From positions 1 to 24,251 of the IMG/VR virus record IMGVR_UViG_3300027362_000069: a DNA stretch of 24,251 nt. One strand, given 5' to 3'. The stretch's first letter is position 1. Each line of letters opens with the position of its first letter. Shown here piece after piece: positions 19,307-24,091 of the stretch. Origin of the DNA: a virus. Its lineage: Duplodnaviria; Caudoviricetes. Under the pieces are notes generated by a model that had not been told where the DNA came from, searched no databases, and was given only the letters and a program-made list of their open reading frames with translations. Position numbers and translations under genes: made by a program.

Positions 19307-19654
19307 ATGAGCACCGTCCGAGACATGGTGAAAGCGATCCAGGTGGAGATTCGGCAGACGCCTGATCTCCAGCCGGACCGGGCCGCAGAGATGCTGACAA
19401 AGCTGGCGGCGCTGCTCGGGAACATCGGCGACGAGGAGCTCGCGGCCGACCTCGCGTTCAACGCGGTCAATCTGGCGCTCTACCAGGAGCACGGGGCGGC
19501 GAGCCGCGCGAAGCTGTTTGCCGAAGTCACGCCGGAGTATCAGCGCAAGCGAGAAGCGAAGGCGTGCGGCGTGCTAGCGGTGGAGCTAATCCGGAGCCTG
19601 AAGGCGTTTCTGCGAACCAAAGAACAGGAGCGGACATGGGCGGGACACCAATAA
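19307..19654 (+). CDS. Hypothetical all-helical protein, 115 aa (possible recombination mediator)
   Basis: Clean ORF directly after the SSAP; function inferred from position only. Confidence 0.7.
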   Translation: MSTVRDMVKAIQVEIRQTPDLQPDRAAEMLTKLAALLGNIGDEELAADLAFNAVNLALYQEHGAASRAKLFAEVTPEYQRKREAKACGVLAVELIRSLKAFLRTKEQERTWAGHQ

Positions 19655-19839
19655 CGGATTACGACGTCGTGGACGCGATGCGGACCTATGGCGGCAGTTT
19701 TGTGCAGGCTATTGCTTCGGCGTTCTTCCGAGCCGACCGCGATAACCAGCAGATTATCAAGGCCGCATGGCCTGAGATATGGGCCGAGTATGCCGACATG
19801 GCGCGGCTACGGGCGGAGCGCGAGGCGGCAAGGAGATGA
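19636..19839 (+). CDS. Hypothetical phage protein, 67 aa (YGGSFV..IA.A...AD..N motif)
   Basis: SD AGGAG; ATGA-coupled to the MTase. Confidence 0.75.
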   Translation: MGGTPITDYDVVDAMRTYGGSFVQAIASAFFRADRDNQQIIKAAWPEIWAEYADMARLRAEREAARR

Positions 19840-21188
19840 GCCTGACGGTGGGCAGTCTCTTTGCGGGCATCGGCGGGTTCGACCTGGCCGCTGAGCGTGT
19901 CGGGTTTGAAGTCAAGTGGCAGGTTGAGATCGATCCATTCTGCCGGCGGGTGCTCGAGAAGCACTGGCCGCATGTGAGGCGGTACGAGGATGTCAGACAG
20001 ACGCATGTGGCCGACGCCACGCACATCGGACATAGCGGCGGGACGGCGACTGGATCGGCACGGCAACCGGACGAATCTAGCGGGGACGATGGTGTATGGA
20101 GCAAACCTGTCGGACGCCGTGACATGGACGCCGCCGGATGTGCAGGATGTCTCCCAGCCGTCGATGTTCTCTGCGGAGGATTTCCCTGCCAGCCCCACTC
20201 CCTGGCTGGCAAACGTGGCGGAGCTGCCGACTCGCGCGACCTCTGGCCCGAGTACGCCCGACTCATTCGCGAGCTTAGACCCCGATGGGTCGTGGCGGAA
20301 AACGTGCCAGGGCTACTCTCAAATGACGCTGGACGGTTCTTTGGAGGCATTCTCCGAGACCTGGCCGCGTGCGGGTATGACGCGGAGTGGGACTGCGTAT
20401 CAGCTAGTGCCGTTGGCGCCCCTCACCGGAGGGATCGCGTCTGGATCGTGGCCTACCCCAACGGCAAACGATTACAAGAACGCGGGCTATCAGACGGCGA
20501 ACGGTCGCGTGTATGTGACGCTGCCTGGAGCAACCGGATCGGCGCCAGTGAAGTGGCCGACGCTAAAATCTTCACCGAGCGGGCCGGACTATGCACGACG
20601 GAATCGGGAGGGCAGCGGGGGGGACGATTTAGCGACGGTGGTTGGTGGGCAGTTGAACCCAACGTGGGTCGAGTGGTTGCAAGGCTATCCGCTCGGCTGG
20701 ACGGAGGTCGACTGAATGGGCAGACCTCGACTGGCGGAACCGCAGAAGTGTTGCGCGCGCTGCGGAACGGAGTACCGGCGCCAGATCTTCAATGGCCGGC
20801 TCGAGGATTTGGGGGCATTCAAGCGACGGAAGTACTGCTCGCTGACGTGTGCGAATACCAAGGTCCGGCCAAGCCATTGGGAAACGTATCACTGGCGAGC
20901 GAGGAAACATCGGGGGCCGTTGTGCGAGGCGTGTGGTTCGACGGCGCGGCTACATGCCCATCATGTCGACGGGAAGCCAGAGAACAATGCGGCCGAGAAC
21001 ATCCAGACACTCTGCGTGTTCTGTCACGGATTCTTACATGCGACTGCAGAGCGGCTTGGCTGGACCCAACCGGGACGCCTTCCAAGACTTCTCGCGTGGA
21101 CCGACTTAGAGGACTCGGCAACGCCATCGTCCCCCAAGTCGCGGAGTGGATCTTCCACCGGATCAAAGACGCGGAAGGGCTAAGCTGA
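19836..21188 (+). CDS. DNA (cytosine-5) methyltransferase, alpha-type polypeptide (motifs I-VIII and X; no recognisable motif IX), 450 aa
   Basis: LFAGIGG (I), VEIDPF (II), GGFPCQ (IV), AENV (VI), APHRRDRVWIVAY (VIII), RLRGLGNAIVPQVA (X). Confidence 0.93.
   Translation: MSLTVGSLFAGIGGFDLAAERVGFEVKWQVEIDPFCRRVLEKHWPHVRRYEDVRQTHVADATHIGHSGGTATGSARQPDESSGDDGVWSKPVGRRDMDAAGCAGCLPAVDVLCGGFPCQPHSLAGKRGGAADSRDLWPEYARLIRELRPRWVVAENVPGLLSNDAGRFFGGILRDLAACGYDAEWDCVSASAVGAPHRRDRVWIVAYPNGKRLQERGLSDGERSRVCDAAWSNRIGASEVADAKIFTERAGLCTTESGGQRGGRFSDGGWWAVEPNVGRVVARLSARLDGGRLNGQTSTGGTAEVLRALRNGVPAPDLQWPARGFGGIQATEVLLADVCEYQGPAKPLGNVSLASEETSGAVVRGVWFDGAATCPSCRREAREQCGREHPDTLRVLSRILTCDCRAAWLDPTGTPSKTSRVDRLRGLGNAIVPQVAEWIFHRIKDAEGLS
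19990..20715 (+). CDS. Nested +1-frame C5-MTase beta-type polypeptide (three WPT modules and motif IX-like segment), 241 aa
   Basis: GQLNPTWVEWLQGYPLGWT resembles motif IX; WPTPRTSD, WPTPTAND, WPTLKSS modules; FSETWPRAGMTRSG. Start could be 19990 or 20005. Confidence 0.8.
   Translation: MSDRRMWPTPRTSDIAAGRRLDRHGNRTNLAGTMVYGANLSDAVTWTPPDVQDVSQPSMFSAEDFPASPTPWLANVAELPTRATSGPSTPDSFASLDPDGSWRKTCQGYSQMTLDGSLEAFSETWPRAGMTRSGTAYQLVPLAPLTGGIASGSWPTPTANDYKNAGYQTANGRVYVTLPGATGSAPVKWPTLKSSPSGPDYARRNREGSGGDDLATVVGGQLNPTWVEWLQGYPLGWTEVD
20716..21183 (+). CDS. Nested HNH endonuclease with N-terminal Zn finger, 155 aa
   Basis: CARCG...KYCSLTC; CEACG...LHAHHVDGKPENNAAENIQTLCVFCHGFLH; own SD GGAGG at 20703-07; ATG abuts the beta stop. 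Confidence 0.88.
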   Translation: MGRPRLAEPQKCCARCGTEYRRQIFNGRLEDLGAFKRRKYCSLTCANTKVRPSHWETYHWRARKHRGPLCEACGSTARLHAHHVDGKPENNAAENIQTLCVFCHGFLHATAERLGWTQPGRLPRLLAWTDLEDSATPSSPKSRSGSSTGSKTRKG

Positions 21189-21496
21189 TGCCGTTTACCG
21201 ACTCGCAACCTGCGCTGCCATTCGCCGGCAAGACCCCGACGAGCCGGCACTGCAGCCACCAGGCGGCCGTCTCTGCGGCCTCCACGCGCGTCCTGAAATC
21301 GCAGAGGTATCTCGACTGGCTCCGGCTGCAGGGCCGGCTCAGCGACCATCAGGCCGCCGACGATCTTGGCTGGCCGCTCTCGAGCATCTGCAGTATCCGC
21401 AATGGCCTGTTCGACCGGGGGCTGATCGAGGTCGCCGGCACCATCGAAGGCCCATACCACAAGCGCGTGACGCTCTGGCGCGCGGTGCAGGGGTGA
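21188..21496 (+). CDS. Winged-helix DNA-binding protein, 102 aa
   Basis: LSDHQAADDLGWPLSSICSIRNGLFDRGLIEVAG...VTLWRA; TGATG overlap. Confidence 0.75.
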   Translation: MPFTDSQPALPFAGKTPTSRHCSHQAAVSAASTRVLKSQRYLDWLRLQGRLSDHQAADDLGWPLSSICSIRNGLFDRGLIEVAGTIEGPYHKRVTLWRAVQG

Positions 21497-21717
21497 CGAC
21501 CCTAGAACTCGCCGAGAAGATCGCCACGGCCGTCATCCGCGCGACGCAACCGGCCGGCATGGCGCCCTACGGAGATGCGGCGACGCAAGCCGTGCTGACG
21601 ACGCTGATTGCGAACGAGTCCTGGTTCTGCAGGCTCAGGGTCGAGGAGTTGGCGGACGGGACGCACGGCGCAACGCACGAAGAGCCCTACGAACGTGTGC
21701 AGGGGGAGTTGTTCTAG
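21493..21717 (+). CDS. Hypothetical protein, 74 aa (C-terminal QGELF, resembling a beta-clamp-binding motif)
   Basis: GTGA overlap. Confidence 0.6.
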   Translation: MTTLELAEKIATAVIRATQPAGMAPYGDAATQAVLTTLIANESWFCRLRVEELADGTHGATHEEPYERVQGELF

Positions 21718-23076: not shown

Positions 23077-23189
23077 GCAAGGCGTGGCGTATTTGCGTGC
23101 GGTTCAAGGCGGGCCGGTCGTATGCGAGCTGTTGCCGGCAGTGGGGGCGCCACGTCGTGGATCGCGCGTTGCGGGCGGCGGCAGCGTGA
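23073..23189 (+). CDS. Small basic protein, 38 aa (not in ORF track)
   Basis: MSKAWRICVRFKAGRSYASCCRQWGRHVVDRALRAAAA*; ATGA and GTGA overlaps. Confidence 0.55.
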   Translation: MSKAWRICVRFKAGRSYASCCRQWGRHVVDRALRAAAA

Positions 23190-24091
23190 GCCTGATACGC
23201 GCGGATGCCAGGTGCCTGCCGCTGGTGGATGGCTGTGTTCAGACATGCGTCACGAGCCCGCCGTACTTCGGGCTGAGAGACTACGGGGCCAGTGGGCAGA
23301 TTGGCCTCGAGCCGTCGCCTGATGCCTACGTGCAGTCGCTGTTGACGGTGTTCGCGGAGGTGTGGCGGGTGCTGAAGGCTGACGGGACCGTGTGGCTCAA
23401 TCTTGGCGATAGCTACGCCAACCACGGGCATTCGTGTCCAGTGAGGAATAAAACGACTGCTGGTATGAGGACGGCTCCGCAGCCGTGGAAAAGCATGGAG
23501 GGTCAGAAAGCGAAAGACCTACTCGGCATCCCCTGGCGAGTCGCCTTCGCGCTCCAGGCGGCGGGCTGGTATCTCCGCTCAGACATCATCTGGAGCAAAC
23601 CCAACCCGATACCCGAGAGTGTGACGGATCGGCCAACGAAAGCGCATGAGTACATCTTTCTGCTGAGCAAGCAGGAGCGGTACTACTACGACGCGGAGGC
23701 CATCAAGGAATCGGTCAGTGGGACAGCACACGCACGCGGCTCTGGCGTGCATCCGAAAAGCGCGGAGCCGGGAAGTGGTATCAAGCAGAACAGTTCATTC
23801 AGCGCAGCGGTGCGCCATTTGGTCGATGACCGCAACAAGCGCAGCGTCTGGCACGTCGCCACGCAGCCGTACAGCGGCAGTCACTTTGCGACTTTCCCCG
23901 AAGCGTTGATCGAGCCCTGCATCCTGGCCGGCTCACGTCCTGGCGATCTGGTGCTGGACCCGTTTATCGGCAGCGGCACGGTGGGCGCGGTGTGCGAGCG
24001 GTTCGGGCGGCGATGGGTGGGGACGGACTTGAACTATCAGGGGCTGGCGAAGAAGCGCACGAAGCAGCGCGGGCTCAGGTTTTCAGTATGA
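23186..24091 (+). CDS. Beta-class amino-DNA methyltransferase (SPPY; probably N4-cytosine), 301 aa
   Basis: CVTSPPYFGLRDY, WLNLGDSY, IIWSKPNP, HEYIFLL, HFATFPEALIEPCI, VLDPFIGSGT. GTGA start at 23186. Confidence 0.93.
   Translation: MSLIRADARCLPLVDGCVQTCVTSPPYFGLRDYGASGQIGLEPSPDAYVQSLLTVFAEVWRVLKADGTVWLNLGDSYANHGHSCPVRNKTTAGMRTAPQPWKSMEGQKAKDLLGIPWRVAFALQAAGWYLRSDIIWSKPNPIPESVTDRPTKAHEYIFLLSKQERYYYDAEAIKESVSGTAHARGSGVHPKSAEPGSGIKQNSSFSAAVRHLVDDRNKRSVWHVATQPYSGSHFATFPEALIEPCILAGSRPGDLVLDPFIGSGTVGAVCERFGRRWVGTDLNYQGLAKKRTKQRGLRFSV

Follow-up and report, generated by a model that had tools for sequence, protein, structure and literature searches.

An HNH endonuclease gene overprinted in a two-frame phage C5-methyltransferase gene, a likely homing element that needs neither intron nor intein

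Inspection of a phage DNA stretch of 24,251 nucleotides (Caudoviricetes; IMG/VR record IMGVR_UViG_3300027362_000069; hereafter the window) revealed an HNH endonuclease gene overprinted in a C5-cytosine methyltransferase (MTase) gene, which itself encodes two chains in two frames. Judging from sequence comparisons, the HNH gene is likely to be a homing element. It would need neither intron nor intein, as ribosomes making the methylase chain would simply read on across the insert. The element is real, under selection and probably mobile. Besides introns and inteins, it presents a third means by which a homing nuclease can reside in a gene under selection.

Organization of the three-frame locus

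The window is a linear virus record with an estimated completeness of 45%. Pfam and PHROG searches identified tail, endolysin, repressor and replication-region genes. The three-frame locus sits in the replication region, upstream of a second methylase gene (N6/N4 type) at 23084. The features of the locus are listed by window position; "empty" and "filled" denote alleles without and with the insert.

19836..21188, + strand: alpha chain, C5 cytosine methyltransferase, 450 aa; Pfam PF00145 (DNA_methylase) E 1e-45, TIGR00675 above cut-off
19990..20715, + strand: beta chain, up to 241 aa, candidate start; +1 frame; phrog_1008 E 6e-26
20656..20676, + strand: host half of the putative homing site (beta NPTWVEW, alpha PNVGRV), shared with empty alleles
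20677..21089, + strand: tract replacing 14 nt of the empty allele (recoded motif-IX end, ribosome-binding site, beta stop, HNH core)
20692..20705, + strand: repeat copy 1 (GWT of recoded motif IX), weak alone
20703..20718, + strand: GGAGG, beta stop TGA and HNH start ATG, read from the sequence; presumed translational coupling
20716..21183, + strand: HNH endonuclease gene, 155 aa; +1 frame, wholly within the alpha ORF
20955..21047, + strand: four methylase-frame cysteines (C374, C377, C402, C404), candidate zinc site; HNH-silent T fixed
21091..21104, + strand: repeat copy 2, what is left of the original end of motif IX; alpha reads RVDR before motif X
21105..21137, + strand: motif X of alpha (LRGLGNAIVPQ), assigned from relatives and the model

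A preliminary description of this DNA had placed a 155-aa zinc-finger HNH protein with its own GGAGG wholly inside the C5-MTase ORF, in the +1 frame; when re-checked, the coordinates and frames of alpha, beta and HNH held. The insert region was reproduced by contigs of four runs (two of these runs possibly being the source sample) without a single differing letter, therefore the insert is not an assembly artefact.

Alpha consists of motifs I–VIII, a variable region, 133 net extra residues across the insert, and motif X. Its start ATG overlaps the stop codon of the upstream gene. The alpha model could be aligned with M.HhaI (Z 24.4, rmsd 1.8 Å, 201 aligned residues spanning 1–450), and motif X is predicted to dock. 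Residues 62–97 and 211–299 of alpha were predicted to be disordered. The C-terminus of beta carries the motif-IX-like peptide LNPTWVEWLQGYPLGWT; motif and frame are the same in empty and filled relatives. The peptide probably is motif IX, as judged by its position, its conservation and what we take to be the consensus of this motif. The layout, with motifs I–VIII and X in one frame and motif IX in an overlapping frame, is of the EcoHK31I type. Target recognition may reside in beta rather than in alpha.

Other features of the window include several W-P-T-P-like repeats in beta (19990–20715), whose length is variable among relatives, two glycosyltransferase genes (790–2528) upstream of the tail genes, and a 63-codon +1 ORF (23718–23909) inside the variable part of the second, N6/N4-type methylase (23084–24091).

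The HNH protein and its expression signals

Among the PHROG HNH families the best match of the HNH protein was PHROG 1271 (E 9e-13). The match to Pfam HNH (E 0.002) fell short of the Pfam cut-off, and the best E-value of a PDB sequence search was 7e-4. The protein contains two Cys4 sets (C13/16/41/45 and C70/73/100/103). These zinc cysteines, as well as H83, D85, N90, N95, H104 and H108, were invariant across 52 homologues, a spread sample of the 248 HNH homologues found. The His and Asn residues of the beta-beta-alpha-metal motif are intact; we presume the catalytic and structural roles of the His, Asn and Asp residues from general knowledge of such nucleases. The model of the protein had a mean pLDDT of 84. 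A fold search with this model gave no match with an E-value of 0.001 or better; the weak rows were HNH nucleases (best E 0.1). The last 29 aa are the old tail of beta, as had been proposed.

The GGAGG sequence (20703–20707) is located 8 nt before the HNH ATG. The beta stop TGA (20713–20715) abuts the ATG, and the HNH ORF continues in the frame of beta directly after the stop. By analogy with T4 mobE, translation of HNH would be coupled to termination of beta. In the class-1 representatives (the class to which the window belongs, see below) the HNH start was 0–3 codons past an upstream in-frame stop in 73 of 87 cases, and a ribosome-binding motif of at least 4 nt was present in just 51 of 87. 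Fusion of beta and HNH through loss of the stop codon was observed in none of the 164 loci of the family, and no internal sigma-70 promoter was found in the window locus. The window sequence allows a hairpin that would mask the ribosome-binding site; this was rejected (z = -0.85; pairing not kept in the junctions of the clade). A second W-L-M-G-like stretch was noticed at or just before the HNH start codon in L203, L111, L098 and L102 and in the class-1 loci L091, L093 and L109, which suggests that the start codon arose from another copy of the target.

Boundaries of the insert and empty alleles

Contigs carrying the empty allele were found in runs containing the window; their sides are short and they probably derive from other phages. 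They match the window up to 20676, depart after this position and rejoin at 21090, with 14 different bases between. Thus, the tract 20677–21089 has 413 nt in place of 14 nt, a net difference of 399 nt. Approximately 40 nt of the tract fall outside the HNH ORF.

The preliminary description had regarded two direct repeats as the ends of the element. Its figures were right (11/14 identical, 399 nt apart), but the tract starts at 20677, 15 nt further upstream, and the repeats are the worn-down trace of a duplicated half of motif IX that was once longer. Because 14 places in the window, counting the repeat, match repeat 1 at 11/14, the repeat by itself is no better than chance, and it was rejected as stand-alone evidence.

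A first search with alpha found 80 viral loci, of which 46 gave both motifs by pattern; the spacing was short in 45 of the 46. When more loci were surveyed, the motif IX-to-X spacing was the same in 123 of 133 empty ones, and the window is exactly 399 nt longer; the predicted empty alleles, shorter by exactly this length, do exist. In four filled/empty pairs (alpha 92–94% identical) the sequences agree through W-V of motif IX, diverge between W-V and E-W, and agree again beyond the insert, from E-W-L-M-G or shortly after. The element therefore entered inside motif IX, carrying its own recoded second half. The original half of motif IX persists downstream: some lineages have all of it, and in the lineage of the window erosion has reduced it to the 14-nt repeat.

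In four empty loci (L011, L026, L029, L325) motif IX shares its frame with motif IV, and the other frame holds motif X. A frameshift within the variable region, which is doubly coded, could explain such a swap of chain ends; assembly errors could also be the cause.

The methylase frame stays open across the family

The family was collected with an HNH profile. The 175 loci comprise all 15 genome loci, the 80 best among 176 viral ones and the 80 best among at least 350 confirmed metagenome stretches. After leaving out two identical copies, one duplicate, one truncated locus and eight weak hits, 164 full-core entries were counted, the window included; 107 representatives with less than 90% amino acid identity were drawn from them. 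The HNH gene was in methylase context in 163 of the 164 loci. An additional 25 full-length methylase proteins hold the insert in frame (54–67% identity).

The preliminary description had noted that the MTase frame is open through the insert to motif X. The frame leading to motif X was stop-free not only in the window but in 105 of the 107 representatives, where synonymous resampling predicted 1.5, and the third frame was open in 6 of 107. Stops in the methylase (shadow) frame, which if common in filled homologues would have spoken for a broken gene, were thus confined to two representatives: L248, which is free-standing with no methylase nearby, and L216, which is cut by the contig start. The free-standing HNH gene (L248:2444–2947) lies beside a primase-like gene and is nested in the tree among methylase-borne copies. 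In the 105 open representatives T was found at 0 of 1756 stop-making third positions and at 1790 of 5462 positions elsewhere; the zero is partly by construction, the two closed loci having been left out. The relatives are not independent, but their divergence (most HNH pairs are 40–70% identical) still leaves ample time for stops to appear. Four-fold sites were near saturation in pairs with less than 70% identity (0.32–0.37 versus 0.29–0.30), thus the family-wide constraint is mainly that of staying open. The methylase-frame residues of the insert are mostly unconserved across the family. A single open frame contained motifs I, IV, VI and VIII in 92 of 96 filled loci and in 125 of 128 empty ones.

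Loss of the putative target site and probable mobility

At a fixed site between motifs IX and X, alleles are filled or empty in a patchy pattern. In a tree of 184 alpha catalytic regions (built by a fast method, with long-branch warnings) filled and empty alleles interleave, and the nearest rows of the window are empty. The state "empty" required 27 changes on this tree, at least 10 of them forced by strong branches. The hosts of five HNHs of the window's clade were rejected as one clade (AU test, p 4e-58; 39 rows, chosen after the first tree had been seen). The window shares 80% identity in alpha and 55% in HNH with L204, and 47.5% and 75%, respectively, with L164, and the HNHs of L111 and L119 are 96% identical in methylases whose alphas are 45% identical. 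Against homing, the identities of HNH and alpha do show a weak correlation (rho 0.19–0.29), and the filled label clusters beyond what label shuffling gives. Close pairs, too, have different variable regions, a sign of frequent recombination. Tree conflict alone is no proof of nuclease-driven homing, since phage methylases recombine often.

Of 108 distinct empty alleles 94 had the EWLMG peptide of motif IX intact; the upstream copies of filled alleles had it in 1 of 94, the latter figure representing fewer independent events because altered copies are inherited within clades. The losses occurred via many different substitutions at E, W or M, while the neighbouring residues are conserved. Such a pattern is what one expects of a homing target. 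Many filled alleles retain EWLMG in the downstream copy, and the window's variant WLQG is present in two empty alleles, L346 and L351; consequently, EWLMG is not the whole site. These two are possibly resistant alleles or precise losses; motif X of L346 is short and degenerate. WLQG was rejected as an indicator of the filled state, since a pattern search gave 10 unrelated hits among 16, the others being 4 filled loci already known and 2 empty ones. The doubly coded motif-IX block was the most conserved of four 30-nt blocks among empty alleles (0.78 versus 0.67–0.68; 0.86 versus 0.78–0.83). This fits the preference of homing nucleases for conserved sites, as described in the available text of PMC2988022.

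Alternatively, the methylase might have domesticated HNH as a partner for restriction-like attack or competition, directed against unmethylated DNA of rival phages or the host, with the overlap preventing separation. The presence of nearly all family members inside a C5 methylase gene, the conservation of HNH and its apparent co-translation with beta would agree with such a role, as would weak matches to ZorE HNH models (E 6e-8), although these cover the HNH core only and are far under the family cut-off. Near-identical HNHs reside, however, in very different methylases and vice versa, an identity pattern that argues against the co-travel of a restriction-modification pair; most close methylase relatives are empty, and what is specifically lost in filled alleles is a site in the DNA of the methylase gene. 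We therefore regard a partner role as unlikely, and the suggestion that the nuclease had been tied to its protecting MTase fits poorly with the L111/L119 pair. The other suggestion of the preliminary description, a selfish homing element, fits the patchy spread and the loss of the target site.

It is similarly improbable that an old insertion now spreads passively by ordinary recombination between phage methylase genes, with HNH kept for some other job or slowly decaying. The modest identity of most HNH pairs and the frequent recombination of the variable regions would agree with passive spread. Against it speak the invariant catalytic residues, recent-looking transfers such as that between L111 and L119, sharp junctions in hosts of 92–94% identity, and the systematic loss of the target peptide.

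A sister architecture with motif X on beta

In 37 filled loci (13 representatives; some of the 37 are the same contig in two collections), termed class 2, alpha stops before the insert. They include L092, L094, L098–L103, L111, L119, L203 and L212. Class-2 beta runs from motif IX through the shadow frame of HNH to motif X. The insert is 454 nt long in 32 of the 37 loci, which is not a multiple of three. The class-2 layout was found in none of the 133 empty loci. Of the 80 viral relatives nearest to a class-2 alpha, 74 were sorted by layout; 71 had motif X on alpha, the layout of 3 was ambiguous, and none was filled. On the HNH tree class-2 HNHs occur in four places, at least two of them forced by strong branches. 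Transfer of motif X from alpha to beta by a 454-nt insert was not found described in the open-licence literature.

The open frame tracks whichever chain must reach motif X, and this sequence pattern is the best argument for a working, unspliced methylase. That an overlooked intron, ribosomal bypass or an intein removes the insert from the RNA or the protein is very improbable: the duplicated junctions do resemble matching take-off and landing sites and the class-2 insert is not a multiple of three, but there was no Rfam match, and hence no sign of a group I or group II intron, at E up to 1 in 19500–21500, no intein or Hint domain on alpha in Pfam, PHROGs or NCBIfam, HNH fills nearly the whole insert, the class-2 open frame is the one continuous with beta, and there would be no point in selecting against stops in the read-through frame if RNA splicing or skipping left the stretch untranslated. 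The open frames and the lack of an Rfam match agree with the earlier proposal that the insert is tolerated by overprinting.

A candidate zinc site in the shadow frame of the window's clade

In 12 of 12 loci picked by HNH similarity, an HNH-silent T was fixed at the four methylase-frame cysteine positions and at W320, W367 and F368. In the same loci three doubly silent sites varied (7/5, 6/6 and 10/2). Within the clade Cys-forming T occurred at 47 of 65 sites versus 31 of 76 at doubly silent sites; outside the clade it was depleted (few independent sites). The alpha model had pLDDT values of 56–86 over residues 331–410. An Atlas search with the methylase-frame insert found unnamed viral clusters and no structural match above TM 0.37. 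A zinc-bound mini-domain in the alpha insert is a lead; the model may echo covariation of the other frame. The insert of the window's clade may be partly folded. Of the about 133 unstructured residues previously proposed to be added to the MTase, the number stands as the net gain, whereas "unstructured" is doubtful for this clade in view of the fixed cysteines and the model. An apparent avoidance of proline in the methylase frame was discarded as an artefact of the null (against doubly synonymous sites, 0.56 versus 0.51 outside the clade, not significant inside).

Proposed mechanism

In the homing model that we prefer, ribosomes finishing beta would restart at the abutting ATG and produce HNH. 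During co-infection HNH would nick or cut the empty allele in the W-V-E-W-L-M-G stretch, which is doubly coded, or close to it. Repair would copy in the element together with the recoded motif-IX end, by which beta would be restored and the filled allele become resistant. Alpha would bear the 133 extra residues as a loop or small domain with motif X still docking, and alpha and beta together would methylate DNA as M.EcoHK31I does.

More tentatively, and with somewhat less than even confidence in the whole, the data can be read as a widespread, splicing-free homing family with a doubly coded site, which brings along a cut-resistant motif-IX end, whose shadow frame in the window's clade is a folded zinc-bound domain, and whose non-3n insertion in several sister lineages turns an EcoHK31I-type enzyme into a working AquI-type enzyme at each invasion.

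Comparison with known systems

The arrangement is less new than the preliminary description had assumed. Arsenault, Gosselin and Gogarten (2025, PMC11855218) described, in the text available, the ShiLan domain, a hidden out-of-frame HNH in actinophage methylases; reports of the related kind, also available in part, are Gosselin et al. 2023 (PMC9957025), that on phage Applejack gp55 (PMC12613952) and bioRxiv 2025.01.02.630785. According to these accessible parts, ShiLan and the window have in common a zinc-finger HNH in another frame of a phage methylase whose own frame is open, the absence of intron or intein signals, and an insert start resembling the sequence past the site. The patchy spread of ShiLan was likewise read as homing, and the evidence is computational only in both cases. 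The window shares with the ShiLan kind an HNH lying wholly inside a stop-free methylase ORF, but it falls outside the strict ShiLan domain family. The ShiLan host gp65 is an N6/N4 methylase (PF01555) and that of the window a C5 methylase. As given in the same text, the ShiLan HNH (195 aa, HNH_3 type) is in the +2 frame, has a GTG start without ribosome-binding site, and was described in about ten phages. The window family differs in its +1 frame, ATG start with GGAGG presumably coupled to the beta stop, doubly coded candidate target and size (at least 164 loci), and in that stop depletion and target-site loss have been measured. The two HNHs are 27% identical over 120 aa. The different host methylase, the different frame and this low identity indicate that the window family is independent of ShiLan.

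A hidden out-of-frame HNH in a phage methylase is thus an already published kind, of which the C5 two-frame family is a new variety. Neither this family nor its target was found described in the open-licence literature (subscription journals and the authors' online survey files were outside the scope). The family supplies the population evidence missing from the 2025 proposal, in that stops are depleted, the insertion point could be mapped and a candidate target was identified.

M.EcoHK31I resembles the window in having motifs I–VIII and X on alpha and motif IX on a beta chain encoded in an alternate frame inside alpha; an inserted nuclease is not described in the available text of the two sources (PMC2836561, PMC3404938), and the likeness seen here is one of layout and motif order. 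In M.AquI, according to the part of PMC3404938 available, alpha contains motifs I–VIII and beta motifs IX–X. Class-2 relatives share this division of motifs; the window itself is class 1. Class 2 differs from M.AquI as described there in that it arises via a 454-nt HNH insert in an EcoHK31I-type gene, with beta reading through the shadow frame.

The available accounts of mobE in nrdA of phage Aeh1 (PMC3045599) and of mobA in T4 gene 60 (PMC2988022) show, as in the window, HNH genes in coding regions without splicing. In Aeh1, element-derived sequence became needed protein tails (PMC3045599). Both insertions split the host gene into separate polypeptides, whereas in the window the host frame runs through the nuclease gene. 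The family is a natural experiment in the origin of new protein sequence by overprinting and in a two-chain enzyme shifting a motif between its chains.

Occurrence in cultured phages

Hidden HNHs escape annotation, as they did in two cultured phage records; counts of phage homing nucleases are for this reason probably too low. Komagataeibacter phage phiKX1 (LC644975; L258:854–2495) has the same alpha/beta/HNH layout as the window, with the HNH gene at L258:1977–2495, and its record annotates just beta and the last 68 codons of alpha. As phiKX1, a phage of Komagataeibacter xylinus, has been cultured, the questions raised here are directly testable.

Staphylococcus phage CUB-EPI_14 (ON325435; L257:2001–2483) carries a related, unannotated HNH (37%) in the +1 frame with GGAGG. 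It lies at a different site, before motif IX inside a single-chain C5 methylase of 601 aa. The homologue in phage IME-SA4 spans approximately 520 nt less. In Gordonia phage Inspectinfecti (PP978792; L260:1186–1641) the annotated endonuclease gp6 is nested in the +1 frame in a C5 methylase alpha; gp6 has a LAGLIDADG-like motif by eye and no Pfam hit, and its stop directly precedes a beta-like ATG at 1642.
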